DNA of 64,000 bases from Clostridia bacterium. Its GTDB lineage: Bacteria; Bacillota; Clostridia; Oscillospirales; CAG-382. Positions within the stretch are counted from its first letter, which is position 1; every line of letters begins with the position of its first letter. Below the pieces are notes generated by a model. The model did not search any database. It worked only from the letters and a program-made list of their open reading frames with translations, and had not been told where the DNA came from. Location of the stretch: contig JAFYPA010000083.1 of NCBI GenBank assembly GCA_017560085.1, positions 14,517 to 78,516 on the forward strand, in the 5' to 3' direction. Shown piece after piece: positions 8,204 to 34,110 of this stretch. The translations under genes and the position numbers were made by a program.

Positions 8204-10213
8204 GTAGAAATACAGCTTCGCACATCTCTTTTCGGGGAGCGTGAGCGTGATTCTGCCGTTTTCCGTCTCGTATTCTTCCGTTGTGTCCTTGTCGCAAAGA
8301 ACAAGCTCTTTTCCTTCGGAGAAGGCAAAATCAAGGGCTATATCGCTGTCCTCGCATTCCTCCTGACGGAATACGAAGAGAATGCCATTTTCCGCTTCCG
8401 CATCGAAATATGTGTATGCCGTGAAGCCCTCAAGGTCGTTTTCGTGATGCCACGGCGTAAGTGTGTAAAATTCCTTCAGAAGATATCCGTTTATCTCCTT
8501 CCATTCCTTGATGCCTGCTCTCAGAATATCGAAATTCTGTGTCGGGTCGTAAACAAGCTGTGTGTCAACATTGAGAGATGGGAGATAGGACGCACGCCAT
8601 ATGTACATATCGCTGTTACCCTTGCCCGAAAGCTCGCCGAGCTTCTCTCTTGTGCAGGCACCACAGAAGGGAATCCATTTATTGAAGGACGAGGTCTGCG
8701 AAAGACGGATGCCCGTGGATGTTCTGTCGTGGTCGGAACGCAGAAGCGGTACTCCGACGTGCATTGATTCAAGGTCGTTTCGACCGCCACCGCCACAGCA
8801 GGAGTCCACAAAGGCACATCCGCCGGTGCTCTTGGTTGCCTCTATTGCCTTGTCCCACAGACGGTAGTGACCGTCAAGACAGGTGATTTCCGTGTAGCCG
8901 TCACGGTTTTCGCCCTGAAGATTATCGCCCGTTGTCCAGTATTCACATCTTGAGCCGTTGTCCTCACGGAGCATATCCACCTTTGTCTTTTCCAGCACGG
9001 ATATGATTCTGTCCTCTGTCCATCTGTAGCATTCGGGGTCTCCGAGATTGCTTGTGAAGGTGTTGTCATTGAGATTTGTGGGAGCAAATGCCCATTCCTT
9101 TCTGTAGCCGTAATTTTTCTCAAGCTCCTCGGGCATACATACCTTTTCCGTGGCAAACCACAAAAGAGTTCTCATTCCGTTGTCCCTTGCAAATTCCACC
9201 GATTCACGGAAGGTGTCATCGGGCCATTTTTCATAGTCAAATTCCCAGGTGCCGAGAGTATCACGCCAGTCGTGTCCTTTTTGGAAGGGGATGGGACTTG
9301 TCTTGTCGGGAGCGACATACCATCCCGCATCCACCCAGCGGAAGTCGACCTTTATATCCTCAGCCATCATCTTTTCAAGCGACGGCTTCCACGTGCTGTA
9401 TCTTTCGGAAATGCTTCCGTCGGAATTGGGATATCCCGTATCGAATGCAAGACAGCAGGTTGAGAATGGCTTCATCGGAGTGCCGTTGCCGTCAAAGGGC
9501 GGAAGAATGTTTGTGATATAATGGCTTCTCCAGTAGTTTGTGGCGTAGTCCTCATTTCGTACCGTGTAATCCGCAATCGAGTAAAGAGCCGTTCTTATTT
9601 CCTCGTTCGGATTGAGATATGTCTTAAGATTTCTCGGTGAGCATCCTTCATAAATAACCTTTCCGTCCTCATATGTAAAGGAAGCCTTCCAAGTACCCGA
9701 CCATCCGAGTGCAAGCATTGTTCCGCCCTTTTCGTGCTCTAAATTGAAATAGGGAAAGAATTCGTGCGTTGCTCTGCCCGTGTTACAGTCAAAGCTTACA
9801 TTTTCGCTTTTGAGGTCTGTGGAATAGGGACGGTAGTAGTTGACGTGGTCACCGAGAATGCCCTTGAGAATGGGGGAATCCGTGGTAAATACCATCTTTG
9901 TGCCGAGCTTTTCTATTATTCCGCATTTTGTACCCGATGTGTTTCTGATTCGTGCAACCCATTCCGTTACGCCGTGGGTATAGTAGTGCTTCAGCGTTAC
10001 CTTGAAGGTGAGCGTGCTTTTAAAATCAAAGGTAAGAACCGCGGTTTCCGTGTCGCCCTTTCTTTCGGAGGCCTTGTCCGTAAGAGTAAAATCCTCACCG
10101 AAGCCGATATATTCCTTGCCGTCGTATGTGAATGTGAATGGAATCCTTTGGGGGCATTGAAGCATTTCAAGGTAAGCCATGTCCGAGGCGGGATTTCTGT
10201 AGTTTCTTATCAT
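8192..10213 (-). CDS. GH36-like glycoside hydrolase (divergent subgroup), cytoplasmic
   Basis: VDSCCGGGGRNDLE and MLREDNG parallel the GH36 motifs of 5283..7259. Same length class. No signal peptide. Confidence 0.6.
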   Translation of the reverse strand: MIRNYRNPASDMAYLEMLQCPQRIPFTFTYDGKEYIGFGEDFTLTDKASERKGDTETAVLTFDFKSTLTFKVTLKHYYTHGVTEWVARIRNTSGTKCGIIEKLGTKMVFTTDSPILKGILGDHVNYYRPYSTDLKSENVSFDCNTGRATHEFFPYFNLEHEKGGTMLALGWSGTWKASFTYEDGKVIYEGCSPRNLKTYLNPNEEIRTALYSIADYTVRNEDYATNYWRSHYITNILPPFDGNGTPMKPFSTCCLAFDTGYPNSDGSISERYSTWKPSLEKMMAEDIKVDFRWVDAGWYVAPDKTSPIPFQKGHDWRDTLGTWEFDYEKWPDDTFRESVEFARDNGMRTLLWFATEKVCMPEELEKNYGYRKEWAFAPTNLNDNTFTSNLGDPECYRWTEDRIISVLEKTKVDMLREDNGSRCEYWTTGDNLQGENRDGYTEITCLDGHYRLWDKAIEATKSTGGCAFVDSCCGGGGRNDLESMHVGVPLLRSDHDRTSTGIRLSQTSSFNKWIPFCGACTREKLGELSGKGNSDMYIWRASYLPSLNVDTQLVYDPTQNFDILRAGIKEWKEINGYLLKEFYTLTPWHHENDLEGFTAYTYFDAEAENGILFVFRQEECEDSDIALDFAFSEGKELVLCDKDTTEEYETENGRITLTLPEKRCAKLYFYNLK

Positions 10214-10224
10214 TTTTCTGCTCC

Positions 10225-12246
10225 TTATTTAAGTGTGTAGTAGTAAAGCTTTGCCGTTCTCTTTGCGGGAAGATTCAAGGTAAGCCTGCATCCTGCGGTT
10301 TCAAACTTTTCGTCTGTGTCCTTGTCGCAAAGCACAAGCTCTCTGCCGTTTGTGTAGCCGAAATTGAGAGCTATTTCCGATTCCTCGCAGTTTTCCTGAC
10401 GGAATACAAATAGAACACCCTTTTCCGCCTCGCTGTCAAAATAGCTGTATGCGGTGAAGCCATCAAGGTCGTCCTCGTGATGCCACGGCGTGAAGGTGTA
10501 AAACTCCTTTAGAAGGTATCCGTTTATTTCCTTCCACTCGCGGAGTCCTTCACGAAGAACCCCGAAATCCTGATCCGGATCCTGCACAAACTGTGAGTCC
10601 ACATTAAGTGCGGCAAGATAGGATGCACGCCAGATATAAGTATCGCTGTCGCCCGTGGCATCAAGCTCGTACTTCTTTGCCTTTGTGTTTGCACCGCAGA
10701 AGGGAATCCACTTGTTGAAGGAGGATGTCTGTGAAAGGCGTATACCCGTTGACATTCTGTCGTGGTCACTTCGCAGAAGGGGAATGCCTCTTCTCATTGA
10801 TTCAAGGTCGTTTCTGCCACCGCCCGAAGCACAGGAGTCCACAAAGCCGCATCCGCCGTGACCGAGGGTGCATTCTATGAATTTATCCCACATTCTGTAG
10901 TGGGCATCTATGAATTTGCATTCGGTAATACCGCTTCTGCCGTCGCCCTCTTTTTTGTCCATATGTCCCCAGAGCCTTGCGGGGTCACCGTTGTTGTCCT
11001 CACGGTACATTTCAACCTTGTTGTGGCGAAGCATATTGCAGATTCGGTCGGTTATCCAGTCGAAGCAATCTGGGTTGCCGATGTTATTTGAAATTACGTT
11101 TGTCTCTTCCATGGAGATTGCCCAGTCCGTATTGTAGCCGAAGTTCCTTGCAAGATTTTCGACGTCCGTAACTCTCTCGGGCTCAAACCATACAAGAGTT
11201 TTCATACCGTTTGCCCTTGCAAAATCCGTGGACTCAAGGAAGGTATCATTCGGCCACTTGTTGGGATCAAGCTCCCATGTGCCGACAGTACCCCACCAGT
11301 CACGATCACCGCCTCGGGGGATACAGCTCTTTTTGTCGGGGGTAATGTACCATCCCGCATCGAACCAGCGAAAGTCCACCTTTGCATCCTCCGCAATCAT
11401 CTTTTCAAGCGAGGGTCTCCAGGTGAAATAACGCTCGGAAATGCTTCCGTCGGATCGTGGAAGTCCCGTGTCCGAATCGAGACAGCAGGTGGAGAAGGGC
11501 TTCATCGGATTTCCCTCCGCGTCCGCCTTGGGGAGAATATAGCTTACATACCAGCTTCTCCATATGTTTGTCGCATAGATTTTGTTTTCGCTACAGTACT
11601 CTATAAACGCAAATCTTGCGGTACGGATTTTTTCGCCCGCCTTAAGATATGTGCAAAGATTGTTTACGGACTTCGCTCTGTATTCGGTAACGCCGTTCTC
11701 GTACACAAAATCCGCAGTCCACGTACCTGCCCAGCCTATCGCGAGAAGGTATCCTCCATTTGAGTTTTCAAAATTGAAATAGGGAAAATAAACGTGAGTC
11801 GCTCTTCCGCTGTCAGATGTGAAATTTACGGATTCCGTTGTAAGGTCGTATTCATAAGGCTTATAGAAGTTTTCGTGGTCACCGAGTATACCCTTGAGAA
11901 TGGGCTGTTCACCGCCAAGCTTCAGCGAGAAGCATATATCCTCGATAATTTCCGAGCTTCCGTCCGAGATATTTTCCGCCTCCATAGTGATATCCGTCGC
12001 ACCGTGAGAAGGGTAGTGGTTGAGAGTAAGCGTGATTTTTAATGTGCCTTTGAGAAGAAGCTCAAGGCTTGTGCATATAATACCGTCCTTTTCCTCCGTC
12101 TTCTTGCTTGCATATGTAAAATCCTCACCGCCAAAGCCCTCATATCTTTTACCGCCGTATGTAAAGGATAGCGGAATAAGTGCGGGATTGCTTATCATTG
12201 CGGAATATTTTCTGTCGGATTCGGTATTTGTGAAATTACGAATCAT
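10225..12246 (-). CDS. GH36-like glycoside hydrolase, paralog of 8192..10213
   Basis: Collinear with its neighbour (VDSCASGGGRNDLE, MYREDNN, identical RSDHDR(T/M)STGIRLSQTSSFNKWIPFCGA block). Start moved to Met19 (12246), which has a GGAGGA RBS. Confidence 0.6.
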   Translation of the reverse strand: MIRNFTNTESDRKYSAMISNPALIPLSFTYGGKRYEGFGGEDFTYASKKTEEKDGIICTSLELLLKGTLKITLTLNHYPSHGATDITMEAENISDGSSEIIEDICFSLKLGGEQPILKGILGDHENFYKPYEYDLTTESVNFTSDSGRATHVYFPYFNFENSNGGYLLAIGWAGTWTADFVYENGVTEYRAKSVNNLCTYLKAGEKIRTARFAFIEYCSENKIYATNIWRSWYVSYILPKADAEGNPMKPFSTCCLDSDTGLPRSDGSISERYFTWRPSLEKMIAEDAKVDFRWFDAGWYITPDKKSCIPRGGDRDWWGTVGTWELDPNKWPNDTFLESTDFARANGMKTLVWFEPERVTDVENLARNFGYNTDWAISMEETNVISNNIGNPDCFDWITDRICNMLRHNKVEMYREDNNGDPARLWGHMDKKEGDGRSGITECKFIDAHYRMWDKFIECTLGHGGCGFVDSCASGGGRNDLESMRRGIPLLRSDHDRMSTGIRLSQTSSFNKWIPFCGANTKAKKYELDATGDSDTYIWRASYLAALNVDSQFVQDPDQDFGVLREGLREWKEINGYLLKEFYTFTPWHHEDDLDGFTAYSYFDSEAEKGVLFVFRQENCEESEIALNFGYTNGRELVLCDKDTDEKFETAGCRLTLNLPAKRTAKLYYYTLK

Positions 12247-12291
12247 ATTGTTTTCCTCCGTTTTCGGAACCTTTTCCCGAATAAAATATCG

Positions 12292-12311
12292 TTGTAACAA
12301 TTATATTACAA
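12292..12311. promoter_or_regulatory. inverted repeat, candidate operator in the divergent promoter region
   Basis: TTGTAA-caattata-TTACAA, a perfect 6-bp inverted repeat between the GH36 cluster and the AraC gene. Confidence 0.3.
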
Positions 12312-12384: not shown

Positions 12385-13266
12385 ATGCAAATTTATTTGG
12401 GAGGAGGGCTCCTATTGGTAGAAGGACGCGTTGTTGAGTATGGGGGACTTGCTCCCTTTAAGCTTCAGATAAAATACGTTGATATTTTGCCTGATGATCC
12501 GACAAACACTCACGAGGATCATATTCACGGCGAGTGCGAGATTTATATAAATCTCACGGGGGACGTTTCCTTTATGGTGGAGAATAAGATTTACCCCATA
12601 AAATCGGGAAGCGTTATTATTACCCGTCCCTGCGAATATCATCATTGCATATACCACAGCAACGAGAGCCACGAGCATCTGTGGATTCTCTTTGAGTCGC
12701 ACGGAAACGAGTCTGTTCTTCCGCTATTCTTTGAAAGACCCCTCGGTGAAAACAATCTCATCCGCCTTTCCGAAAAGCAGAAGCTCAAGGTGCTTGAAAT
12801 CTGCAAGGCAATAATTCACGGTGAACACTCGGAAAAGCAGAGGCTCGCGGACTTTATGCGGATTCTGTGCATCCTCGAAAACGCAGACGGAAGCCTTGAC
12901 GGACCTTCCGATTCCGTGCCCGAGGATATTTCCTCTGCGATTGAATTCATAGGCGAAAACCTCGGAAGTGTTTTTACCGTTGCGGATGTTGCGAAATATG
13001 CCCACATCAGTGTAAATACCCTTGAGAGGCGTTTTCTTGAGGTGCTTAAAACCACACCGTCGGGCTATATAAAAAGCAGAAGACTCGCAAGGGCGGCGGA
13101 GCTTTTACCGAGCTGTAAATCCGTCGGTGAGGTCTGCGAGGAATGCGGATTCCGAGATTATTCAAACTTCATAGCCATATTCAAAAAGCAGTTCGGTGTA
13201 ACGCCGCTGAAGTTTAAGAAAACACACGAAAAAAGAATGTCCGAATATTCGGAGGTAGCAAAATGA
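12385..13266 (+). CDS. AraC-family transcriptional regulator (cupin sensor plus HTH)
   Basis: N-terminal cupin-like HEDHIHGECEIYINLTGD and C-terminal AraC HTH (GFRDYSNFIAIFKKQFGVTPLKFKK). The start may instead be TTG at 12415, which lies 6 nt after GGAGGAGGG. Confidence 0.85.
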   Translation: MQIYLGGGLLLVEGRVVEYGGLAPFKLQIKYVDILPDDPTNTHEDHIHGECEIYINLTGDVSFMVENKIYPIKSGSVIITRPCEYHHCIYHSNESHEHLWILFESHGNESVLPLFFERPLGENNLIRLSEKQKLKVLEICKAIIHGEHSEKQRLADFMRILCILENADGSLDGPSDSVPEDISSAIEFIGENLGSVFTVADVAKYAHISVNTLERRFLEVLKTTPSGYIKSRRLARAAELLPSCKSVGEVCEECGFRDYSNFIAIFKKQFGVTPLKFKKTHEKRMSEYSEVAK

Positions 13267-15263
13267 GCGATAAAAAGAAAATAATAAACTTAGGCATACT
13301 CGCCCATGTTGACGCAGGCAAAACCACCGTTACGGAAAACCTTCTGTACTTCTGCGGAAAGACAAGAAGCCCCGGCAGCGTTGACAGCGGAAATACCGTC
13401 ACGGATAGCAGTGAAATCGAAAAGAAAAGAGGAATTTCCGTTTTCTCCTCGGGAGCGGATATTCAGTACGGCGATTTTACCGTGAACATAATCGACACCC
13501 CCGGACACGTTGATTTTGCGGGGGAGGCGGAGAGAAGCATTATGTCCCTTGATGCGGCACTGATTGTGGTTTCAGCCGTTGAAGGACTTCAATCCCACAC
13601 GGAAAACATTATGCAGACCATCATACATAACAAGCTTCCCTGCGTGTTTTTTGTAAACAAGATTGACAGAGCGGGCAGCAGCTTCAAAAGAGTAGTAAAC
13701 GAGCTTTCCGAGGCATTCGGCAAGAGATTTGTGTGTCTTAATGTCCCCGTGGGAGAGGAATCGAAGGGGTGTAGTGTTGCACCAAACGAGGATTTCCGCA
13801 CCGAAGCTTCCGAGGTCCTTGCGGAATACAACGACAGCATAATGGAAAAATATCTTTCCGACGAAGAAATATCCGACATTGAGCTTCAGAGCGTGCTTTC
13901 AAACGAGTGTGCCAAAGGCGAGGTTTACCCCGTTGTCTGCGGAAGCGCAATGTACGGCATAGGCATCGGTGAGCTTCTTGATGCGGTCGTAAAAAATCTT
14001 CCCGACAGCACGAAAATCGGCACGGACAAGCTCTCGGGCGTTATTTATAAAATCGAGCACGACAAAACCTTCGGTGTTCTTTCCCACGTCAGAATGTTCG
14101 GCGGAAGTCTTAACGCAAGGGATACGGTGGTGCTAAAATCCCCGAAGGACGATGCACCTTCAAATGACGGCGAGGAGAGGGAAGAACGAAGCGAAAAAAT
14201 CGCACAGATACGAAAGAAGGTCGGAGGCAAATTCTTCGATACGGGTACTGTTGAAAAGGGCGATATCGCCGTTCTCTGCGGTCTTTCAAAGGCGAAGGTC
14301 GGCGACTATATAGGCGAAATTACGGCAGAGCGAAGGCTTGACCTTGTAAACCCCTTCCTTCAGGTTTCGGTAATTCCCGAGGATGAAACAAAGCTTACGG
14401 CACTTGCATCTGCTCTTGCCGAGCTTTCCCGTGAAGAGCCGTACATCAACTACAGATGGGAAAAGAGCGAGCGTGAGGTTGTTATCAGCATCACGGGAAA
14501 AATTCAGCTTGAAATCATAGCAAATCTCCTTCTTGAGCGCTACGGTCTTAAGGTGACATTTACTCCTCCGAGCGTAATATACAAGGAAACACCGGGTATG
14601 CGTGCCGAGGGATTTGAGGCGTATACTATGCCCAAGCCCTGCTGGGCGGTCGTACAGCTTCTTCTTGAGCCGACAAAGCGTGGAAGCGGTGTAAGCTTTG
14701 ATATGGGCAACGTACCCAACAATCAGCTTTTCTACAGATATCAGTCCCACATAAAGCAGTCCTTTTTTACAAGCATAGAGCAGGGAATCTACGGCTGGGA
14801 GGTCACCGACTTCAAATGTACTCTTATCGGCGGTGAGCATCATACGATACATACCCATCCGCTGGATTTCTTCGTGGCAACTCCCGTTGCATTCCTGCGT
14901 GGGCTTACCAACTCCCGTTCAAGACTTCTCGAGCCTTATCTTAAGGTAAGAATCGGCGCCCCCGAGGAATATATGGGTAAAATCACGGGTGATATAGTTA
15001 TGATGCGAGGCGAATTCGACACCCCCGTAATCAAAAACGGCAAGACCACAATAGAAGCCTTTCTCCCCGTTGCGGACAGTATGGACTACCCCACAAGACT
15101 TGCCTCACTTACGGGCGGCAAGGGTATGATTCATTCCGCCTTCGGCTTTTACAGAGAATGTCCCGACGGCTTTATGAAGACCTGCAAGCGCCGCGGAGTA
15201 GACCCTCTTGACAGAGCAAAATGGATTCTTCACTGCCGTGGTGCAATTACCGAGGGAATATAA
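13263..15263 (+). CDS. EF-G-family translational GTPase of the Tet(M)/Tet(O) ribosomal-protection type
   Basis: The N-terminus INLGILAHVDAGKTTVTENLLY...NIIDTPGHVDF...NKID is collinear with Tet(M) G1-G4. At 666 aa it is in the Tet(M) size class. GGAGG RBS; ATGA overlap with the AraC stop. Confidence 0.75.
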   Translation: MSDKKKIINLGILAHVDAGKTTVTENLLYFCGKTRSPGSVDSGNTVTDSSEIEKKRGISVFSSGADIQYGDFTVNIIDTPGHVDFAGEAERSIMSLDAALIVVSAVEGLQSHTENIMQTIIHNKLPCVFFVNKIDRAGSSFKRVVNELSEAFGKRFVCLNVPVGEESKGCSVAPNEDFRTEASEVLAEYNDSIMEKYLSDEEISDIELQSVLSNECAKGEVYPVVCGSAMYGIGIGELLDAVVKNLPDSTKIGTDKLSGVIYKIEHDKTFGVLSHVRMFGGSLNARDTVVLKSPKDDAPSNDGEEREERSEKIAQIRKKVGGKFFDTGTVEKGDIAVLCGLSKAKVGDYIGEITAERRLDLVNPFLQVSVIPEDETKLTALASALAELSREEPYINYRWEKSEREVVISITGKIQLEIIANLLLERYGLKVTFTPPSVIYKETPGMRAEGFEAYTMPKPCWAVVQLLLEPTKRGSGVSFDMGNVPNNQLFYRYQSHIKQSFFTSIEQGIYGWEVTDFKCTLIGGEHHTIHTHPLDFFVATPVAFLRGLTNSRSRLLEPYLKVRIGAPEEYMGKITGDIVMMRGEFDTPVIKNGKTTIEAFLPVADSMDYPTRLASLTGGKGMIHSAFGFYRECPDGFMKTCKRRGVDPLDRAKWILHCRGAITEGI

Positions 15264-15280: not shown

Positions 15281-15330
15281 AATGTGCAATGTGCAATAAA
15301 ATGTTGAAAAATGTTATAAAATGCAATAAT
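15281..15330. repeat. degenerate heptamer tract (AATGTGC AATGTGC AATAAAATGTTGAAAAATGTTATAAAATGCAATAAT)
   Basis: Read directly. Starts 17 nt after the stop of the Tet(M)-like gene and has the same AATGNNN phase as the other arrays. Confidence 0.5.
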
Positions 15331-18561: not shown

Positions 18562-20769
18562 TTAAGTTCTTGAGAACATTTTGTCAAGCTTTGATTTTGT
18601 AAACTCCAGAAGAACCGGTCTTCCGTGAGGACAGTACAGCACAGCCTCATCCGAAAAGAGAATATCCGCTATCATAGTAGAGGATAGCTTGGATGTTTTC
18701 GTGCCCGCCTTTACCGCTGCCTTGCAGGCTGCCGTGTAAAGAGCTCTGTCGAATATGTCGCCTATAGCTTTGCCTCCGCCTCTTGCAATCTGTCCCGCAA
18801 GGTATACGAAGGTTTCCGATGCGCTTTCGATATCTATTTCCGCGGGAACGCCTCGTATAATATAGGAATTACTTCCGAATTCCTCAAATACATATCCGAT
18901 GTTTTCAAGGTAATCTCCGTTTTCCGCAAGGGCAATTGATTCCTCTGCGGCAAGATCCACCGTGAGAGGCATAAGAAGAAGCTGAGTCCCGCCCTCCTTT
19001 TTGCCCTTCTTGAGGGATTCGTAAATGATTCTTTCGTGTGCGGCGTGCTTGTCTATCATATAAAGAGTATTGTCACGCTGAACGATAATATAGGAATTGA
19101 ACGCCTCACCTATGACGGTTATGCTGTTGGCAACACGGCTCATAAGCTCTGCCGCGGTATCCTCGTCCGTACTCTCACGGAAAGGAATATCAGGCTCGGT
19201 TTTAGCCTTGCCCGGCATACTCCGGAAAAGCGAAATATCGTCGGGAGTGAGCTCCTTTTGCGCTTCTGCGGGGGAGCTTTCCCTTGTGACGCTTACTTCC
19301 TCTGTTTTTTCGCAAGTCTCTGCCTCTGTATCGGCTTCCTCTTTTACCTCGGGAGCATCAAAGACGAGCTGTGTGCTTTTGTTGTCCTCGGGAATTTTGC
19401 ATCCGAATTTTCTCAGTGTCTCATCGTCAACACGCACAAATTCGATAGGCTCGGGCTCCGTACTCTGTATGGGATTTACGACCTTCTCGGGCGTTATTTC
19501 CGCGGGAGCTTTTTCCGGCTCCGATGTCTGCACCTTGTTCTCGGGAGCTTTTGCGTAGTCGGGGAGACTGTAGTCAAAGTTTCGGGAGTTTAATTCCTTG
19601 CCCGAATCCTTGCCGAAGAATTTCTCAATGCTTTCGGGATTTGGAACGGATATTATACCCTTGTCCGCAATCATCTCCGACGGCTTTGAAAGAGCCTCGC
19701 TGAAGGTGGTGCTTCTCTGTGAGGGCTCCGTACCGAACTCACCGAGGTCGCGCTGAGGTCTCGGAAGCGATATGTTTTCCGTGCCTCTGGAAAGCGCGTT
19801 TCGCACGGCGTACATTATTGTTTCAAACACCTGACGCTCGCCGGAGAATTTAACCTCAAGCTTTGCGGGGTGGATGTTGATGTCTACCTTGTCAAAGTCG
19901 ATTGTAAGGAACAGAACGCAGGCGGGGAATTTGCCTATGGGGCAGAAGCTCTTGAAGCCCTCCTCAAGACCTGCGGTCATTGTGCCTGACTTTATATATC
20001 TTTCGTTTATAAAGAAATTCTGAAGGTTTCTGTTAGGTCTTGCAATCTGCGGCTTTCCTATAAAGCCCGAGACGGAAAGACCGTCGAACTCATAGCTTAC
20101 GGGAAGCATATTGTCCGTGAATTCTCTTCCGAGCGAGGCGTAAATACAGTTCTTAAGGCTTCCGTCACCGGGGGTTTTAAGCTTTACCGCTCCGTCGGAA
20201 ATAAAGGTTACCGCGATATAAGGCTTGGAAAGTGCGAACTTTTCCACCGCCGCACCGACCGCCTTGGATTCGGAAACATCCTTACGCAAAAATTTTCTTC
20301 TTGCGGGTACGTTTTCGAAAAGGCTTTCCGCAATAATTGTCGTACCTACGGGACAGCCCGTTTCGTTAATTTCCTTTTTCTCGCCGAAGTCGGCGGCAAA
20401 ATAAGTACCCGTTTCGTCCGAGGCTCGCTTTGTCATTATGCGAAGCCTTGTCACGGCAGATATTGCCGCAAGAGCCTCGCCTCGGAAGCCCAGTGTGCTG
20501 ATTGCCGCAAGGTCGTCCTTTGTTTTTATTTTACTTGTTGCGTGACGCAGAATACAGGTAGGAACATCCTCTGCGGCAATACCGCATCCGTTGTCGCTTA
20601 CTCTTATATAACTGCTTCCGCCGTTTTTTATTTCAACGGTAATCTGTGTAGCACCCGCATCGGCGCTGTTTTCCATAAGCTCCTTTATGGCGCTTGAGGG
20701 CCTTTCGACAACCTCGCCCGCCGCAATAAGGTTCGCCGTATGCTTGTCAAGTACGTTGATTATACCCAA
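18562..20769 (-). CDS. mutL: DNA mismatch repair protein MutL
   Basis: ANLIAAGEVVERPSSAIKELMENSADAGAT GHKL ATPase N-terminus. TTG start at 20769, preceded by GGAGGTG. Confidence 0.95.
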   Translation of the reverse strand: MGIINVLDKHTANLIAAGEVVERPSSAIKELMENSADAGATQITVEIKNGGSSYIRVSDNGCGIAAEDVPTCILRHATSKIKTKDDLAAISTLGFRGEALAAISAVTRLRIMTKRASDETGTYFAADFGEKKEINETGCPVGTTIIAESLFENVPARRKFLRKDVSESKAVGAAVEKFALSKPYIAVTFISDGAVKLKTPGDGSLKNCIYASLGREFTDNMLPVSYEFDGLSVSGFIGKPQIARPNRNLQNFFINERYIKSGTMTAGLEEGFKSFCPIGKFPACVLFLTIDFDKVDINIHPAKLEVKFSGERQVFETIMYAVRNALSRGTENISLPRPQRDLGEFGTEPSQRSTTFSEALSKPSEMIADKGIISVPNPESIEKFFGKDSGKELNSRNFDYSLPDYAKAPENKVQTSEPEKAPAEITPEKVVNPIQSTEPEPIEFVRVDDETLRKFGCKIPEDNKSTQLVFDAPEVKEEADTEAETCEKTEEVSVTRESSPAEAQKELTPDDISLFRSMPGKAKTEPDIPFRESTDEDTAAELMSRVANSITVIGEAFNSYIIVQRDNTLYMIDKHAAHERIIYESLKKGKKEGGTQLLLMPLTVDLAAEESIALAENGDYLENIGYVFEEFGSNSYIIRGVPAEIDIESASETFVYLAGQIARGGGKAIGDIFDRALYTAACKAAVKAGTKTSKLSSTMIADILFSDEAVLYCPHGRPVLLEFTKSKLDKMFSRT

Positions 20770-20795
20770 AGAGTGATTTCACCTCCGGAGAAAAT

Positions 20796-21037
20796 ATAGT
20801 GAAGAGTGAATGGTGAATAGTGAATAGTTTAGGTTAATTTGCTTCGCAAATTTTCATTTGATTTAAAATTGAAGAGTGAAGGTTTTGAAGTGAATGCGTT
20901 GAATTTCGGATAAAACAATTTAAATCCAAATCGAAGAAAGCGAAGCTTTCTACATCAAAGCGAAATTCCGCAGGAATTTCTTAAGGAAAATCTTCGATTT
21001 TCCGGTCTCTTCACTATTCACTCTTCACTATTCACTG
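20796..21037. repeat. intergenic cassette copy A: heptamer-array inverted termini plus four triloop hairpins
   Basis: Left arm 20796-20828 is (GTGAAKA)x4; right arm 21007-21037 is its inverted counterpart. Hairpins: 20836-20852 (AATTTGC-TTC-GCAAATT), 20935-20951 (AGAAAGC-GAA-GCTTTCT), 20962-20980 (GAAATTCC-GCA-GGAATTTC), 20985-21003 (GGAAAATC-TTC-GATTTTCC). Confidence 0.8.
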
Positions 21038-21040
21038 ATA

Positions 21041-23632
21041 TCAGTTCGTGTATTTCTTAAGCTCGTACAGCCTCTGAAGTGCCTCAATCGGCGACATTGT
21101 GTCGAGGTCTGTGTGCTTTATTATGCTGTAAACCTTGTCCTTTGCCAAATCGTCAAAGGAGAGGGTAGGCTCGTCTGTCTGCTTTTTTGCACCCTTGCCG
21201 AGCGGAATGCCTACGCCGTTTTCAAGGCTTTCAAGGACCTCCTTGGCTCTCTTTATTACTTCATTCGGTACGCCCGCAAGCTTTGCTACCTCGATACCGT
21301 AGCTGTCGTCTGCGGCACCCTCCACTATTTTGCGAAGGAATATAAGCTCGTCGCCTCTCTTTTTTGCGGCGATGGAGTAGTTTACTATGCAGGGGAAGGT
21401 TTCGGAAAGCTCGGTAAGCTCGTGATAGTGGGTCGCGAACATTGTCTTTGCTCCGATTTTCTTGCCCGCTGTGTATTCGGCAATGGCTCTTGCAATGCTC
21501 ATACCGTCATAGGTGGACGTGCCTCTGCCGATTTCGTCGTATATAATGAAGCTCTTTTTTGTTGCGTTTGCGAGAATGTATGCCACCTCGTTCATTTCAA
21601 GCATAAAGGTGGACTGTCCCGAAGCAAGGTCGTCGCTGGCACCCACTCTTGTGAATACCTTGTCCACAATACCGATTCTTGCGCTCTCGCAAGGAACGAA
21701 CGAGCCTATCTGTGCCATAATTACGATAAGCGCATTCTGTCTCATATAGGTGGACTTACCAGCCATATTGGGACCTGTGATAAGCATAATTCTGCGGTTG
21801 CCGTCAAGATATGCGTCGTTGGGAACAAACATCTGATTTCCCGACATATACTTCTCGACAATGGGGTGTCTGCCGCCTCTTATTTCAAGCTTGTCAGAAT
21901 AGTCAACCTCGGGGCAGACATAGTTGTTCTTGCTTGCAACATCCGCAAGGGAAACGTAAACATCAAGCTTTGCAAGAAGCGAAGCCGTTCTCTGAAGCCT
22001 TACCACATTTGCGGAAATAAAGGAGCAAAGCTTTACGAAAAGCTCATACTCAAGTGCAACAATCTTGTCCTGTGCACCGAGCACCTTGGATTCCATATCC
22101 TTGAGCTCCTCGGTGATGTATCTTTCGCATCCCGTGAGAGTCTGCTTTCTGATGTAGCGAAGAGGTACCATATCGATATTGGACTTTGTGACCTCTATAT
22201 AGTAACCGAATACACGGTTATAGCCGATTTTAAGATTCTTAATGCCCGTAGCTTCCTTTTCGGCGGCTTCAATCTGGGTAATCCAGCTCTTGCCCTCGCC
22301 CATAATGCTGCGAAGCTCATCCACCTGCTCGCTGTAACCCTCACGGATAAATCCTCCTTCACGCACGGAGAAGGGAGGATTGTCGCAGATTGCGGCGTGG
22401 ATTTCGTTCTTTATGTCGGAAAGCTCGTCGATATTCATATAAAGCTCGCAAAGCTCGGGGCTTGTCATTGTGGCAAGAAGCTCACGGATTCTCGGAAGAT
22501 GCTCGCAGGTGGTCATAAGAGCCACAAGGTCTCTGCCGTTTGCCGTGCCGTAGACTATCTTTGTAAGAAGTCTTTCGATATCGTTGATTCCCGCAAGCTC
22601 AAGCTGAAGCTCCTCCTTTGCGATAAAGCTTCCGAAAAGCTCCTTTACCGCCTCCTGACGGGTGTTTATGAGATTTACCGAAACAAGGGGCTGCTCAACC
22701 CACTTACGAAGAAGTCTTGAGCCCATAGCAGTCTTTGTCTTGTCAAGCACCCAGAGAAGTGTGCCTCTCTTTTCGCGGGTACGCATAGCCTCGCAAAGCT
22801 CGAGGTTTCTTCTTGTGTTTACATCTATCGCAAGGAACTGCTCGTTGTTGTAATATGTAAGCTTGTTGATGCTTGTAACATCGTGCTTCTGTGTTTCCGT
22901 AAGGTAATCAATAAGTGCGGAAAGCGCAATAAGTGCGGGTGATTCGGGGTCTATACCGTACTGTGAAAGGTAATCCTCGCCAAACTGCTTTGTGAGAATA
23001 TCAAGTCCCTTTGTGAATCTCTCGCTGTCGTTTGCACCGAGGAACGCACCGAGTCTGCCTCTTATGTAGTCCGCAAGCTCGTCAAGGCTTTCCTCATCAA
23101 TGTTTGTAATGATTTCACTGGGGTTATAAACCGCAAGCTCTCCCATAAGCCTTGATATTATGTCACCCTGTGAAAAGTCTGTTGCATAAACCTCCGCCGT
23201 GGAAATATCCGCTACCGCAAAGCCCGCACGACTACCCTCAATGTACATAGCACAAAGGTAGTTGTTTTTGCCGTCAAGAAGAAGGCTTCCCTCGGTAACG
23301 GTACCGGGCGTAATGATTCTTACAACATCGCGCTTTACAATGCCCTTAGCCGTCGCGGGATCCTCCACCTGCTCGCAGATGGCAACCTTATACCCGCGGC
23401 TGACAAGCTTCGCAATATATCCTTCCGCACTGTGATAAGGAACACCGCACATAGGCGCACGCTCCTCCATACCGCAGTCACGCCCCGTAAGAGTAAGCTC
23501 CAGCTCACGGGAAGCGGTCTTGGCGTCATCAAAGAACATTTCATAAAAGTCTCCGAGACGGTAGAAAAGAATATGATCCTTGTATTGGTCCTTGACTTCA
23601 AAGTATTGAAGCATCATGGGAGTGTAGGGCAT
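21041..23632 (-). CDS. mutS: DNA mismatch repair protein MutS
   Basis: MLQYFEVKDQYKD N-terminus and Walker A ITGPNMAGKSTYMRQ. Start set at Met14 (23632). The upstream MHYALCI extension is read-through into a heptamer repeat. Confidence 0.95.
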   Translation of the reverse strand: MPYTPMMLQYFEVKDQYKDHILFYRLGDFYEMFFDDAKTASRELELTLTGRDCGMEERAPMCGVPYHSAEGYIAKLVSRGYKVAICEQVEDPATAKGIVKRDVVRIITPGTVTEGSLLLDGKNNYLCAMYIEGSRAGFAVADISTAEVYATDFSQGDIISRLMGELAVYNPSEIITNIDEESLDELADYIRGRLGAFLGANDSERFTKGLDILTKQFGEDYLSQYGIDPESPALIALSALIDYLTETQKHDVTSINKLTYYNNEQFLAIDVNTRRNLELCEAMRTREKRGTLLWVLDKTKTAMGSRLLRKWVEQPLVSVNLINTRQEAVKELFGSFIAKEELQLELAGINDIERLLTKIVYGTANGRDLVALMTTCEHLPRIRELLATMTSPELCELYMNIDELSDIKNEIHAAICDNPPFSVREGGFIREGYSEQVDELRSIMGEGKSWITQIEAAEKEATGIKNLKIGYNRVFGYYIEVTKSNIDMVPLRYIRKQTLTGCERYITEELKDMESKVLGAQDKIVALEYELFVKLCSFISANVVRLQRTASLLAKLDVYVSLADVASKNNYVCPEVDYSDKLEIRGGRHPIVEKYMSGNQMFVPNDAYLDGNRRIMLITGPNMAGKSTYMRQNALIVIMAQIGSFVPCESARIGIVDKVFTRVGASDDLASGQSTFMLEMNEVAYILANATKKSFIIYDEIGRGTSTYDGMSIARAIAEYTAGKKIGAKTMFATHYHELTELSETFPCIVNYSIAAKKRGDELIFLRKIVEGAADDSYGIEVAKLAGVPNEVIKRAKEVLESLENGVGIPLGKGAKKQTDEPTLSFDDLAKDKVYSIIKHTDLDTMSPIEALQRLYELKKYTN

Positions 23633-23650
23633 GGGAAGGTCCTTTCTGAG

Positions 23651-23849
23651 AATGCATAATGCATAATGCATAATGCATAATCAATGTTAATTTGCGTTGC
23701 AAATTTTCATTTTTGAATTTTATTTATTTTAGTTTGAATTTTAGAAATATTTTTGATTGCACACAATACCAATTCAAATTAAATTGAAGGAAGCGAAGCT
23801 TCCATCCACGATTATGCATTATGCATTATGCATTGTGAATTGTGCATTC
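23651..23849. repeat. intergenic cassette copy B: (AATGCAT)4 left arm and inverted right arm, sharing a core with copy A
   Basis: Left arm 23651-23681; right arm 23811-23849 (ATTATGC x3 then ATTGTGAATTGTGCATTC). Hairpins 23689-23705 (AATTTGC-GTT-GCAAATT) and 23789-23803 (GGAAGC-GAA-GCTTCC) correspond to hairpins 1 and 2 of copy A. Confidence 0.8.
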
Positions 23850-23861
23850 GCACTGACTCCG

Positions 23862-24272
23862 TCAGTGCTTACAGTTGCTCTTACAGCTCTCGCAATGTCC
23901 GCTGCAACCGCCCGTTGCGGAGGCTTCTGTGTCGGAAAGGAAGGAGCCGATTGTGGAGTTTACGGCACCGATGAGAACGTTGAATTCCTGCTCTGCTGTC
24001 TGGAATCTCTGGTATACGGGGTGCTCGTTGATTTCGCGGTAAAGAGTTTCCGCTCTTGCTCCGATTGCGTCTATAATCTGCTCGTCTGCGTTGGTAAGCT
24101 CTGCCTGCTTGTCGAGAAGGTCCTTCTGTACCTTGAATTCGGAAAGCTTTGTCTTGAGCTCGTCGTTGGCGAAGAATTCTTCCTTTGCCGCTTTGTATTC
24201 GGCAAACTTCTTGCTTGCCTTGAGTTCTTTTCCGAGTGTCTTTGCGAGTTCTATAATCTGAAGCTCTGTCAT
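23862..24272 (-). CDS. YlbF/YmcA-family protein with a Cys-rich C-terminal tail
   Basis: 136-aa helical protein in the position between miaB and mutS that ymcA occupies in Bacillus. C-terminus GGCSGHCESCKSNCKH. Confidence 0.6.
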   Translation of the reverse strand: MTELQIIELAKTLGKELKASKKFAEYKAAKEEFFANDELKTKLSEFKVQKDLLDKQAELTNADEQIIDAIGARAETLYREINEHPVYQRFQTAEQEFNVLIGAVNSTIGSFLSDTEASATGGCSGHCESCKSNCKH

Positions 24273-24310: not shown

Positions 24311-25735
24311 TTAAATTATTTCAGCATAAACGCTTGCGCCCTCGCTTGAGGTTACCCTTACGTTTATGTATTCACCGTAGTAATCCTTGTCCGTATTGAA
24401 TCGGATTATCTTGTTGCCCGAGTTTCTGCCCGTGCTTGTGCCGTCCTCTTCGGGATGGCTGTCGACGAGAATTCTCATCTCTCTTCCGACAAGTCTCTTT
24501 CCGAGATTTGCGTTGACCTCCGACTCGATTTCAAGAAGCCTTGAGAATCTTGCACTCTTTTCCTCCTTGGTAATCGGGTCGTCCATTTCTGCGGCGGGAG
24601 TGCCGTTTCTCGGAGAGAAGATGAAGGCGTATATCGAGTCGAATTCCACTTCCTTTATTGCGGAAATCGTATCCTCAAACTGCTCGTCCGTCTCGCCGGG
24701 GAAGCCTACTATAATGTCGGTCGTAAGCGTGATGTCGGGCATAGCCGCCTTTATCTTTCTTGCAACCTCGAAATATCTTTCTCTGTCGTAGTGACGGTTC
24801 ATAGCCTTTAAAACCTCACTGCTTCCGGACTGCATCGGCAGATGGAAGTGCCGTGCGATTTTTGGATTTCTCGCCATTACCTCTATAAGCTCGTCGGAGG
24901 CATCCTTCGGGTGGCTTGTCATAAAGCGCACAAGAAAGTCACCGGGAATTTCGCATATCTTTTCAAGTAATTCCGCAAAGGAAATTCTTTCATCCTCGGG
25001 GAGGCTCTTACCGTAGGAGTTTACATTCTGACCGAGAAGGGTGATTTCCTTGTAGCCCTTCTCTGCAAGCTCACGTACCTCGTCAAGAATTGCCTTCGGG
25101 CTTCTGCTTCTTTCTCTGCCTCTTACATACGGAACAACACAATAGGTGCAGAAGTTGTTGCATCCGTACATTACGGAAACCCACGCACGGAAATTACTGT
25201 CACGCTCTACCGCACTGCCCTCCACAATCGAGTAGTCCTCTGTGTCAACATAGTATCTTCTTCTCTTGTTTGTCACAACATCAAAGAGAATTTCGGGGAA
25301 TCTGTGAAGCATATTCGTGCCCGCAACGAAGTCAACATAAGGATAGCTGAACTTTATAGTATTCTTTCTGTGCTCCTGAGCAACCATACATCCCCAGAGA
25401 CCTATAAGAAGCTCCGGATTCTTTTCCTTTAAGTGCTTGAGCTGACCCGTCTTTGAAAGGGCACGAAGCTCTGCGTGCTCACGGACCGCACAGGTGTTGT
25501 ATACGATAAGGTCCGCTTCTTCAATGGAGGAGCATTTCTCATATCCGCATCTTATTGCCCAGCCGAGAATTCTTTCGCTGTCCGCCTCGTTCTGCTGACA
25601 GCCGAAGGTTTCAACGCATACACGGAGCCTTCTTCCGAGTGCCGCTTCCTTGTCCCGGTTTATCCGAAGAAGCTCGTCGCAAAGCTCATACTGCTGTGTT
25701 ATGTCGTTGTAGTTGAAATCTGTGTATTTTTTCAT
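24311..25735 (-). CDS. miaB: tRNA-2-methylthio-N6-dimethylallyladenosine synthase MiaB (radical SAM)
   Basis: N-terminal TFGCQQNEADSE, radical SAM CNNFCTYC and a C-terminal TRAM domain. Confidence 0.9.
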   Translation of the reverse strand: MKKYTDFNYNDITQQYELCDELLRINRDKEAALGRRLRVCVETFGCQQNEADSERILGWAIRCGYEKCSSIEEADLIVYNTCAVREHAELRALSKTGQLKHLKEKNPELLIGLWGCMVAQEHRKNTIKFSYPYVDFVAGTNMLHRFPEILFDVVTNKRRRYYVDTEDYSIVEGSAVERDSNFRAWVSVMYGCNNFCTYCVVPYVRGRERSRSPKAILDEVRELAEKGYKEITLLGQNVNSYGKSLPEDERISFAELLEKICEIPGDFLVRFMTSHPKDASDELIEVMARNPKIARHFHLPMQSGSSEVLKAMNRHYDRERYFEVARKIKAAMPDITLTTDIIVGFPGETDEQFEDTISAIKEVEFDSIYAFIFSPRNGTPAAEMDDPITKEEKSARFSRLLEIESEVNANLGKRLVGREMRILVDSHPEEDGTSTGRNSGNKIIRFNTDKDYYGEYINVRVTSSEGASVYAEII

Positions 25736-32571: not shown

Positions 32572-33705
32572 ATGACAGTCGTAGGACTTATATTTTCAAA
32601 CGTATATGACAGAAACATCTCCGAAATGACACGCAAGAGAACAATGGCAAGCGTACCCTTCGGATGCAGATACAGACTTATTGACTTTGCTCTTTCCAAT
32701 ATGGTAAACTCGGGAATAGACAAGGTTGGTATCGTAACACACTATAACTATCAGTCCCTTCTCGACCACATCGGAAACGGTAAGGACTGGGACCTTGCAA
32801 GACGCTCGGGCGGTATCAAGATTCTTCCTCCCTTCATTACGGCGTATGACAGCAATGTTGCAAACAAGCTCTATTCCACAAGACTTGAGGCAATGATTGG
32901 TATAAACAACTTTATAAACCGCTGCACGGAGGACTATGTTGTTCTTTCCGACTGCGATATTATCTGCAACATCAACCTTTCAAAGGTTATAAAGCAGCAC
33001 GAGGAAAGCGGTGCGGATCTTACCGTAGTAACAAAGAAGATGTTCCTCACGGACGACGATGCGGGCAAGCACACCATTATCGAATCGGATGATGAGGGCT
33101 ATGCATCCAATGTATATGTAAGCACATCCAACACAATCGGAATCAATCCCATCTCCACAAACATCTACGTTATCAAGAGAACAACCCTTCAGGGACTTCT
33201 TCTTGAGGCGCTTGCACACGGCTACAAGTCCTTCACGCTTGATGTTCTTACGGTTCTTGCAAAGAAGAGACTGGTTAAGTGCTACGAATTTGACGGCTAC
33301 TATGCATACGTTCATTCCCTTGCGGGCTATTTCTCCACGAGTATGCAGCTTCTTGACCCCAATGTCCGTGCAGGTCTTTTCGGCATAAAGCACAGACCCG
33401 TTATGACAAAGGTGCGTAACTCCGCTCCCACAAAGTACACGGACGGCGCTGTGGTTAACAACTCCCTTATCGCCGACGGCTGTGTAATTGAGGGTGAGGT
33501 AATCGACTCAATCCTCTTCAGAGGCGTAAAGGTTGGCAAGGGTACTGTTATCAAGAACTGTATTCTTCTTCAGGACACATACATCGGTGAAAACTGCAAT
33601 CTCAACTGTGTAATTACGGATAAGAATGTAGTTATCAAGGACGGAAGAAATCTTTCGGGACACGAGTCGATGCCGTTCTTTATTGAGAAAGGGGCAAGAG
33701 TTTAA
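32572..33705 (+). CDS. glgD: glucose-1-phosphate adenylyltransferase, GlgD regulatory subunit
   Basis: Paralog of glgC lacking the GGxGxRL loop (FSNVYDRNISEMTRKRTMASVPFGCRYRLIDFALSNMVNSG). Position immediately after glgC. Confidence 0.9.
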   Translation: MTVVGLIFSNVYDRNISEMTRKRTMASVPFGCRYRLIDFALSNMVNSGIDKVGIVTHYNYQSLLDHIGNGKDWDLARRSGGIKILPPFITAYDSNVANKLYSTRLEAMIGINNFINRCTEDYVVLSDCDIICNINLSKVIKQHEESGADLTVVTKKMFLTDDDAGKHTIIESDDEGYASNVYVSTSNTIGINPISTNIYVIKRTTLQGLLLEALAHGYKSFTLDVLTVLAKKRLVKCYEFDGYYAYVHSLAGYFSTSMQLLDPNVRAGLFGIKHRPVMTKVRNSAPTKYTDGAVVNNSLIADGCVIEGEVIDSILFRGVKVGKGTVIKNCILLQDTYIGENCNLNCVITDKNVVIKDGRNLSGHESMPFFIEKGARV

Positions 33706-33741
33706 AAAAGAATGCATAATGCATAATGCATAATGCATAAT
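33654..33741 (+). repeat. direct repeat DR1 (glgD 3' end, stop codon, A-run and (AATGCAT)4AAT array)
   Basis: 55 nt (33654-33708) are identical to 34038-34092. The array 33711-33741 is identical to the left arm of cassette B. Confidence 0.9.
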
Positions 33742-33819
33742 TAAGACCGCTTGCGGTCGGAGGATTGCTTCTCGATCTTCGTTTGATTGAATTTTAATCA
33801 GAGGAAAGGACGTGATTGG

Positions 33820-34089
33820 ATGAAAAATCTTAAGCTGTTTTTCTCGGCGCTTACGGTTGCGTTTGGGATTCTGGGCTTGACTAAGGCTCTTTCGACAGAT
33901 GTTTCGATGCCGATAATGTTTGTGTGTCTGGCAACGACTATGTTTATTACGTCCAAAGAATACAAGGATAACAATCAAAAAAGGACGGCGGTTTATTTTC
34001 TGCTGTTGGGGGTGTTCCTTGTGGCGGTAACCGTATATTCGGGACACGAGTCGATGCCGTTCTTTATTGAGAAAGGGGCAAGAGTTTAA
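33820..34089 (+). CDS. small 3-TM membrane protein (DUF3953-like) whose last 16 codons are a copy of the glgD 3' end
   Basis: 89 aa with a GAGGAAAGGA RBS. The C-terminus SGHESMPFFIEKGARV is identical to the GlgD C-terminus because of DR2. Confidence 0.5.
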   Translation: MKNLKLFFSALTVAFGILGLTKALSTDVSMPIMFVCLATTMFITSKEYKDNNQKRTAVYFLLLGVFLVAVTVYSGHESMPFFIEKGARV

Positions 34090-34110
34090 AAAGAATGCAT
34101 AATGCATAAT
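34038..34110 (+). repeat. direct repeat DR2 (second copy of the glgD 3' end plus (AATGCAT)2AAT)
   Basis: Identical to DR1 over 55 nt, 384 bp downstream. One A fewer in the A-run and two fewer heptamers. The following CTTCGTTTAATTAAA resembles 33776-33792. Confidence 0.9.

Follow-up and report, generated by a model that had tools for sequence, protein, structure and literature searches.

A hairpin unit with register-locked tandem heptads in the spacers beside mutS and mutL of an uncultured Clostridia bacterium: a candidate insertion-polymorphic repeat family

The genes mutS and mutL of a Clostridia bacterium (assembly GCA_017560085.1, contig JAFYPA010000083.1) are preceded by long spacers, and the question raised by this locus is whether these spacers are regulatory DNA belonging to the two genes or repeat DNA inserted next to them. 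The stretch analysed (64,000 nt, contig positions 14,517 to 78,516, forward strand) is referred to as the window, and positions are counted from its first letter. The ymcA–mutS spacer is occupied by copy B of a repeat element (23651–23848) and the mutS–mutL spacer by copy A (20798–21036); an exact 27-nt core and a GCGAAGC hairpin are common to both, and tandem heptamers make up their inverted arms. With slightly better than even confidence, copy B is assigned to an undescribed, non-coding, palindromic and insertion-polymorphic repeat family of gut Clostridia, similar in kind to doublets of repetitive extragenic palindromic sequences (REPs) that form hairpins (REPINs) and to miniature inverted-repeat transposable elements (MITEs). 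The two copies are composed of the following parts, with bit scores taken from a covariance model that was built from 16 units:

23651–23685, plus strand: left arm of copy B, (AATGCAT)4 and, next to the hairpin, the heptad AATCAAT; the end of the arm lies 18 nt from the mutS ATG.
23686–23712, plus strand: unit 1 motif of copy B, described earlier as the 27-nt core, GTTAATTTGC-GTT-GCAAATTTTCATTT, with GTT, the hairpin AATTTGC-GTT-GCAAATT (23689–23705) and the tail TTCATTT in this order; covariance-model match 23678–23717, 40.3 bits.
23713–23775, no strand: AT-rich interior of copy B, poorly conserved between copies and with no significant promoter signal.
23776–23814, minus strand: unit 2 motif of copy B, linker GAT, hairpin GGAAGC-TTC-GCTTCC (23803–23789; on the plus strand GGAAGC-GAA-GCTTCC, 23789–23803), tail TTCAATTT; 40.9 bits.
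23807–23848, minus strand: right arm of copy B, AATGCAC AATTCAC (AATGCAT)3 AATCGTG, complement of the left arm.
20798–20832, plus strand: left arm of copy A, AGTGAAG AGTGAAT GGTGAAT AGTGAAT AGTTTAG, adjoining the ribosome-binding site (RBS) of mutL.
20833–20859, plus strand: unit 1 motif of copy A, GTT, AATTTGC-TTC-GCAAATT, TTCATTT; 51.3 bits.
20923–20961, minus strand: unit 2 motif of copy A, hairpin AGAAAGC-TTC-GCTTTCT (20951–20935; on the plus strand AGAAAGC-GAA-GCTTTCT, 20935–20951), tail TCGATTT; 33.9 bits.
20962–21003, minus strand: two additional hairpins of copy A, GAAATTCC-TGC-GGAATTTC (20962–20980) and GGAAAATC-GAA-GATTTTCC (20985–21003).
21007–21036, minus strand: right arm of copy A, (AGTGAAT/AGTGAAG)n, beginning 4 nt after the mutS stop codon.

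A reading made from the letters alone (the sequence-only reading) had taken copies A and B for two copies of one type of element on account of the shared core, hairpin, and inverted heptamer arms. This held, and each of its statements on the sequence of copy B (arm heptamers, hairpin sequences, a core that differs from that of copy A in the loop only) was verified. The cores agree at 24 of 27 positions, with all differences in the loop, and the core pattern is matched twice in the window as compared with 0.00 expected matches (100 shuffles). The interiors are AT-rich and could be aligned at about 70% only. Within copy B the arms are complementary over 32 nt at 94%, or over 24 nt at 100%. The statement that the interior ends with the GAA hairpin applies to copy B and not to copy A, in which the two additional hairpins stand before the right arm. 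Just beyond the right arm of copy B, a perfect 7-bp hairpin (CACTGAC-TCC-GTCAGTG, 23851–23867) lies across the ymcA stop codon.

When all copies were laid out with the array first, the "core" and the "GAA hairpin" of the sequence-only reading were found to be the same motif on opposite strands. Each element is made up of two units, about 70 nt long, that face each other as an inverted doublet. In order, a unit contains four to seven heptads in tandem, a linker of 3 nt that is in most cases G-T-T, a hairpin of 6–9 bp in which the stem can change through paired substitutions and the C-TTC-G apex is fixed, and the tail TTCATTT. The proposed single cassette with one core is replaced by this doublet, beside which solo units and arrays occur; the shared core itself is real. 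Doublets are present in the window (A and B) and at loci L084, L089, L090, and L096, and singlets at 60747 of the window and at L083, L088, and L097.

The register of the heptads was determined relative to the hairpin over 17 units. The first heptad position (−10, −17, −24, −31, and −38 from the hairpin) is A in 14–15 of the 17, the second is A or G, and the fifth and sixth are mostly A, which gives the degenerate consensus A-R-N-K-A-A-Y in a register fixed relative to the hairpin. G-T-T at −3 to −1 was found in 15, 12, and 14 of the 17 units, respectively, and 15 of the 17 arrays have the identical register with a 3-nt linker after correction of two hairpin starts. The heptad nearest to the hairpin is always the odd one, and the consensus resembles the tail read in reverse complement (AAATGAA). 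A fixed 7-nt register of this kind is a concrete handle for the search for a binding protein. The arm heptads are complementary within a copy and differ between copies (AATGCAT, AGTGAAT, GAACTAG, AATTAAC, AAAACGT); at least five different heptads occur within the 64 kb, so there is not one characteristic heptamer per genome. Two readings of these motifs were discarded. Stop codons in all three frames are provided by most arrays and not by AATGCAC, AATGCAA, or AATGTGC, and are partly to be expected from an A-rich strand; the closing bases of the TTC loop are unsuitable for a UUCG tetraloop. On the opposite strand the apex reads C-GAA-G, which is a stable DNA mini-hairpin of the d(GCGAAGC) type.

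That the hairpin is conserved as a structure, through paired changes, had been claimed from copies A and B and was confirmed over 16 units. In the 7-bp stem, 96.4% of cells are paired (70.6% in shuffles), six of the seven stem pairs show compensatory, both-sided changes, and 25 doubly changed cells were counted against 6.6 expected. Shifting the partner by one column lowers the pairing to 46–56%, and the closing C-G is present in 15 of the 16 units. The stems found include AATTTGC/GCAAATT, GAAATCC/GGATTTC, GGAAGC/GCTTCC, GGAAAC/GTTTCC, AATTGC/GCAATT, and GATTTAC/ATAAATC. The units had been chosen partly by eye as hairpins, and these figures are to be read with this in mind; as a null control, 120 matches to GTT-N6-CTTCG-N6-TTCATTT, with unconstrained stems, were taken from viral contigs, and in these the pairing was at chance level, with all six pairs formed in 0 of the 120. 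The hairpin structure of the unit is under selection. With stems that covary and a likeness of copies A and B that extends beyond AT-rich runs, the sequence-only reading has withstood the refutation it had itself proposed.

If the whole spacers are folded as RNA or as a single DNA strand, the arms are predicted to pair into a stem of 25–33 bp (copy B: −71.1 kcal/mol, z=−7.9; copy A: −73.6 kcal/mol, z=−5.8). The unit 2 hairpin of copy B passes a simple terminator scan for the ymcA transcript and is terminator-like, and the AT-rich hairpin of the 27-nt core, with two G-C pairs, fails it; the tails (TTCATTT) contain no clean T-run.

Whether the element belongs to the ancestral spacer can be judged from relatives. 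Orthologous loci were collected through MutS homologues, and their spacers are as follows:

Window and L101 (MutS 100% identical): ymcA–mutS 229 nt, filled; mutS–mutL 271 nt, filled.
L096 (94%): ymcA–mutS 244 nt, filled; mutS–mutL 219 nt, filled.
L097 (90%): ymcA–mutS 190 nt, one unit; mutS–mutL 40 nt, empty.
L098 (87%): ymcA–mutS 52 nt, empty; mutS–mutL 48 nt, empty.
L222 (87%): ymcA–mutS 39 nt, empty; contig stops at the mutS stop codon.
L099 (86%): ymcA–mutS 48 nt, empty; mutS–mutL 68 nt, empty.
L100 (85%): ymcA–mutS 52 nt, empty; mutS–mutL 30 nt, empty.
L223 (84%): ymcA–mutS 54 nt, empty; contig stops 33 nt past the mutS stop codon.

The five relatives with empty spacers (L098, L099, L100, L222, L223; MutS identity 84–87%) have spacers of 30–68 nt, and the empty spacers of the relatives contain no heptad array of at least three copies. 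L223, with its empty ymcA–mutS spacer, and L101, with a filled one, come from the same sample. With the spacers of close relatives short and empty, the element is a recent insertion, differing in presence among related strains, and not an ancestral control region of mutS. In the "empty" 40-nt mutS–mutL spacer of L097 (4085–4124), AAATTCC AAATTCC GAATTCA follows directly upon the stop codon; this run of two to three heptads may be a proto-array or a remnant.

At the ymcA–mutS site, the arm next to mutS reads (ATGCATT)4 in the window, (ACGCATT)3 in L097, and (CTAGTTC/CTAGCTC) in L096, and the arm of L097 differs from that of the window by one change spread through the entire array. Arms therefore turn over, and homogenisation acts on whole arrays. 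The earlier proposal that arms are regenerated or selected as tandem heptads, and not copied verbatim, is borne out by this turnover at an orthologous site, with the qualification that the heptads are not free, their consensus and register being fixed. The two elements of L096 have a 43-nt identical stretch in common and align with a score of 165, as against 19 for the orthologous pair formed by copy B of the window and copy B of L096; for copy A of the window and copy A of L096, the mutL-side arm is still common (score 111). Since the paralogues within L096 are closer than the orthologues, units are exchanged between copies inside one genome.

Two contigs from other samples (L225, L226) encode a MutL that is 100% identical to that of the window. 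Their identity to the window is 99.97% from 17742 (L225) or 17966 (L226) to 21036, and past this base the sequences are unrelated, so that the break at 21036/21037 falls on the outer edge (last base 21036) of the right arm of copy A, and a GDPD-like pseudogene (L225:1–952, L226:1–415) is found in place of mutS. The sole difference from the window is one single-nucleotide polymorphism (SNP) in the second heptad, the trace that recombination within the array with another array of the AGTGAAT type would leave. The junction is probably real, because two separately assembled samples agree, and mutS and mutL may be uncoupled in these strains. A search for other contexts of the GDPD-like gene gave only a 639-nt contig from another sample, which carries a 94% identical C-terminal GDPD fragment (L228:186–545) and then unrelated sequence without a heptad array; the array beside this gene in L225 and L226 is therefore not ancestral to the gene.

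Further units were sought with the covariance model, which finds exactly five in the window: four in copies A and B and one between groES and groEL. Period-7 arrays number 7 in the window, as compared with 0.04 in 100 local composition-preserving shuffles. The shorter solo arrays at 15281, 33711, 34094, and 46199 have no intact hairpin. The solo units and arrays, all of which lie 1–19 nt after a stop codon and are A-rich on the coding strand, are as follows:

15281–15297, plus strand: short array, (AATGTGC)2.4, 18 nt after the stop codon of gene 13263–15263.
33711–33741, plus strand: solo array, (AATGCAT)4.4, 5 nt after a stop codon, then a degenerate unit (…CTTCGTTTGATTGAATT).
34094–34110, plus strand: short array, (AATGCAT)2.4, fused directly to CTTCGTTT; it looks like a unit without its stem.
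46199–46229, minus strand: solo array, AATGCAC AATTCAC AATGCAC AATGCAC, 1 nt after the stop codon of gene 46231–47487.
60747–60816, plus strand: solo unit between groES and groEL, AATGCAC (AATGCAA)3 AATTGAT, hairpin GAAAATTTC-TTC-GAAATTTT (60786–60805), T-rich tail; covariance-model match 60777–60816, 38.7 bits.

The AATGCAT arrays at 33711 and 34094 each follow one copy of an exact 55-nt direct repeat (33654–33708 and 34038–34092). The repeat pair brackets an open reading frame (ORF) of 89 aa (33820–34089) without a Pfam match, the last 17 codons of which copy the 3′ end of the upstream NTP-transferase gene. The region 33654–34110 has the look of inserted or duplicated DNA with heptad arrays at its boundaries.

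With the strict core pattern, five true relatives were found in metagenome contigs (29–41% GC), all with the full 27-mer and with heptad arms that differ in sequence (AACGAAT, AATGAAT, AATTAAC/AGATAAC, AAAACGT), and three of the five contigs (L084, L089, L090) carry doublets. The unit of L090 lies between rplJ and rplL, that of L088 upstream of yabP, and that of L084 beside a gene for an SLH-domain protein; judging by the neighbouring genes, these contigs therefore also belong to Firmicutes. The two units of L089 are nearly the same, down to the linker AATGGCGGTT; where their stems differ, the changes are paired. The genes that host units (mismatch repair, chaperonin, ribosomal protein, sporulation) have no functional theme in common.

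Over 862 kb of related loci, the covariance model gave nothing beyond the near relatives of the window and the five metagenome contigs; weak matches in L007 and L062 lie within coding sequence and were rejected. In Rfam, the window had no match at the gathering score, nor had 20700–23900 at E≤5, and in viral contigs a loosened unit pattern gave chance matches only. The sole result of a blastn search against plasmids and phages was a heptamer array of Nostoc, with no matching element: the right arm of copy A (21007–21036) is matched by a 32-nt heptamer array on a Nostoc plasmid (NZ_CP040276.1:217292–217323), which the annotation places within a gene for a restriction endonuclease. Heptads of this type are therefore found again in cyanobacteria. 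In the literature on heptamer repeats, no description for Firmicutes was found. Among 63 tandem arrays of at least three copies in 927 kb of related metagenome-assembled genomes (MAGs), 26 have period 7. Some MAG arrays (GAATTAA, TAATTCG) stand beside GC-rich hairpins starting with GTAGGGG (L020:1890–2060, L047:6600–6760, L083:150–290); these hairpins look like classical REP sequences, and heptad arrays may accompany several hairpin families.

The assignment of copy B to a repeat family proceeds from what is documented above: units of modular build, hairpins selected for their structure, heptads locked in register, an insertion that is polymorphic among relatives, exchange from copy to copy, and a breakpoint located at the edge of an arm. 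The hairpin with its conserved flanks would probably be what a trans-acting enzyme recognises, one of the HUH/RAYT type (RAYT: REP-associated tyrosine transposase) with specificity for structure or for single strands, as for REPINs, and the matched heptad arms would let the whole element fold back. The arms could stay complementary either by concerted evolution (slippage, exchange between arms and copies) or by selection for the fold-back. As part of the miaB–ymcA–mutS–mutL transcript, the spacer would fold into a stem of about 25–33 bp that encloses two small hairpins with a T-rich tail behind each, and would act as a leaky terminator or processing site within the operon; expression of mutS would then come from read-through or start at weak promoter-like hexamers made up of core and arm. 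An argument for mobility from the occurrence of the element in both orientations relative to genes was dropped, the doublet being pseudo-symmetric.

Several results weigh against this assignment. No transposase, RAYT, or other partner gene was identified in the 64 kb of the genome that were available; 10 small ORFs of the window gave nothing relevant and no Y1 transposase. Neither a target-site duplication nor a direct repeat was found flanking copies A or B, for which filled and empty sites are too diverged to be mapped exactly. Classical terminal inverted repeats agree between copies, and these arms do not. The strict core pattern gave 0 matches in 185,579 species-representative genomes, among which the source species is not included, and only five units occur in 64 kb. 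The junction in L225 and L226 could be an assembly join of near-identical copies, though it recurs in two separately assembled samples. Finally, the solo units and arrays are all in sense orientation just after stop codons, the register is conserved, and the number of heptads is narrow (4–7); these three features agree with a function selected in the host no less well than with selfish spread.

The main rival, which is not mutually exclusive with the repeat-element assignment and which we regard as possible but less likely, is a host module at gene ends. The array, hairpin, and U-rich tail after the stop codon would constitute a selected cis-acting RNA, operating as an attenuator or terminator or as a 3′-end stabiliser in operons. 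The heptad array would be the platform on which an oligomeric RNA-binding protein recognises one A-R every 7 nt, in the manner in which HutP reads (NAG-N4)3; between cistrons, the doublet would insulate in both directions or offer a site to RNase III. Such a module would account for the sense orientation of every solo unit and array 1–19 nt after a stop codon, for the phase-locked A-R register with its narrow range, for the unit 2 hairpin of copy B that passes the terminator scan, and for the long stem predicted when the spacer is transcribed; sites are also found in operons the cistrons of which need unequal expression (rplJ–rplL, groES–groEL). The arrays of L096 are literally (UAGNNNN)5, and HutP binds XAG-rich sites (PMC2425495). 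However, close relatives run the same operons with empty spacers of 30–68 nt, the host genes share no theme, and the stems are short and AT-rich and would hence be weak terminators. Many heptads lack AG (AATGCAT, AATGCAA), no candidate binding protein was present among the 10 small window ORFs, and the strain breakpoint at an arm edge and the exchange between copies are the behaviour of repeat DNA.

A broader proposal, which is put forward as speculation of low probability, is that the unit is the cis element of an unrecognised genome-wide Clostridia system. An oligomeric protein (probably ring-shaped and of about five to six subunits) would dock on the C-TTC-G hairpin, read one A-R per 7 nt on the strand beside it, and control termination, processing, or recombination at gene ends. 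The doublets flanking mutS could also be recombination substrates by which mutS is uncoupled or deleted, as the junction in L225 and L226 hints, giving rise to mutator lineages.

It is very improbable that the arrays form a contingency locus, in which slippage-prone heptamers would switch the expression of mutS and mutL, and hence the mutator state, by copy number. Tandem 7-nt units do stand 18–27 nt upstream of the mutS and mutL start codons, core and arm form a promoter-like TTAACA-16-CATTAT with its −10 hexamer within the arm, and the homogenisation of orthologous arrays indicates that slippage or exchange occurs on evolutionary time scales. Variation in heptamer number by slippage, which the sequence-only reading had expected, was not seen in the independent assemblies overlapping the arms (L001 for part of copy B; L101/L224, L225, L226, and L227 for copy A), which all have the number found in the window, as judged from consensus assemblies and not from read pile-ups. 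The arrays lie outside the −35/−10 spacer and the coding frame, so that a change in copy number switches nothing obvious; the same arrays also follow unrelated housekeeping genes; and promoter matches are not above chance. A chance likeness of AT-rich, low-complexity spacers or an assembly artefact, suggested by the AT-rich interiors that align at about 70% only, has already been refuted and retains next to no probability, given the exact core (0.00 expected), the 7 period-7 arrays against 0.04, the covarying stems, the same sequences in independent assemblies, and the same architecture in unrelated contigs.

The genes around the element are arranged on the minus strand in the order MiaB-like radical-SAM enzyme (24311–25735), Com_YlbF/YmcA-family protein (23862–24272), MutS, and MutL (18562–20769). 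The start of mutS is located as follows:

23630–23646, minus strand: true mutS start (ATG 23632–23630) and RBS (GAAAGGA, 23646–23640); the orthologues all have 863 aa.

MutS comprises 863 aa from this ATG, a length shared by all orthologues, and the distance of 18 nt to the left arm, which starts at 23651, had been given correctly. The N-terminal extension MHYALCI is genuine as an open frame, begins at an ATG within the heptamer arm, and is spurious as a part of MutS, as had also been said. The public gene call for MutS (L101/L224, 876 aa) uses an ATG inside the arm, and this record carries a false N-terminal extension of 13 residues (23633–23671) caused by the repeat arm; ATG-rich arms mislead gene callers. 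It had further been argued that the element must carry or bypass the mutS promoter. The scan gave 5 promoter-like matches against 4.6 expected and thus no ground for assuming a promoter within it. In relatives without the element mutS follows ymcA after only 39–54 nt, and mutS is therefore probably operonic. The closest MutS among species-representative genomes is 68% identical, and the host is an uncultured Oscillospirales-like member of the Clostridia. Elsewhere in the window (3518–5329 and 8192–12300), two pairs of adjacent minus-strand paralogues, 74–89% identical over stretches of 200–300 nt, appear to be tandem gene duplications.

For this lineage, the long spacers around mutS and mutL are to be regarded as recent insertions and not as regulatory DNA. 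The arms mark structural breakpoints between strains beside mismatch-repair genes and, if this is confirmed, repeat-mediated rearrangement could affect the mutation rate. A repeat family of unusual design, with a covarying hairpin and register-locked tandem heptads, would be added to the short list of bacterial intergenic repeats, and in uncultured gut Clostridia such intergenic elements are largely uncharted.

Among known systems, REPs and REPINs are short extragenic hairpins with conserved flanks, which have no coding capacity and are mobilised by RAYT transposases; the replicating form of a REPIN is a doublet of inverted units folding into a long hairpin, and singlets also occur (PMC3116915, PMC3337134). 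The present element resembles them in its extragenic, covarying hairpin, its inverted doublets and singlets, its lack of coding sequence, and the variation of copies between relatives. It differs in that the hairpin is flanked by G-T-T ... TTCATTT and not by a 5′ GTAG (GTAGGGG-type hairpins were seen in other MAGs only), in its phase-locked heptad array, which REPs lack, in the absence of a known RAYT from the 64 kb that were read, and in its hosts, which are Clostridia and not Proteobacteria. A REP/REPIN system comprises a single-copy cognate RAYT gene with repeats on its flanks and tens to hundreds of copies per genome; in the 64 kb of the window five units were counted.

Bacterial MITEs and composite repeats, such as Correia/CREE of Neisseria and BOX, RUP, and SPRITE of pneumococcus, are elements of 100–300 bp with inverted ends and no ORF. 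They lie between genes, including within operons, are polymorphic for presence or absence, and can bring in a terminator, a promoter, or a site for RNase III; BOX has a modular build with a tandemly repeated 45-nt module. The element described here is likewise small, non-coding, and intergenic, including within operons, with inverted ends and with presence or absence among related genomes. In contrast to these elements, it has no conserved terminal inverted repeat, its arms being complementary within a copy and different in sequence between copies; no target-site duplication was seen, its repeated module has 7 nt, and there is no sequence similarity to any of the families named.

Tandem heptamers are known as the STRR repeats of cyanobacteria, including Nostoc (10.1101/2022.06.06.494920), and as TAACTGA repeats of Beggiatoaceae, Cyanobacteria, and Bacteroidetes (PMC4679880). 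A genome of this kind carries a single fixed heptamer or a few of them, no linked hairpin or inverted arms are described, and the function is unknown, with a binding protein being suspected (10.1101/2022.06.06.494920, PMC4679880). As there, intergenic arrays of two to six or more heptanucleotides stand near gene ends or starts, beside housekeeping genes including those of DNA repair, and period 7 is in excess. Unlike there, heptads change from copy to copy, are tied to a covarying hairpin, and form inverted pairs, and the phylum is another one. The HutP site of Bacillus subtilis is a 7-nt periodic XAG-N4 with 3+3 repeats beside the hut terminator hairpin, in the leader of a single regulated operon (PMC2425495). 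Similar are the 7-nt purine period (conserved A-R) beside a hairpin and the (UAG-N4)n of some arms; different are the many sites after unrelated genes and the restriction of AG to some arms, and no HutP homologue was found among the 10 small ORFs of the window that were scanned. Foldback (FB) transposons of Drosophila are eukaryotic and of kilobase scale, sometimes with a coding middle, and have long inverted arms of short tandem repeats that are variable in number and sequence. The likeness to these lies in inverted arms of short tandem repeats that vary between copies, and no relationship is implied.

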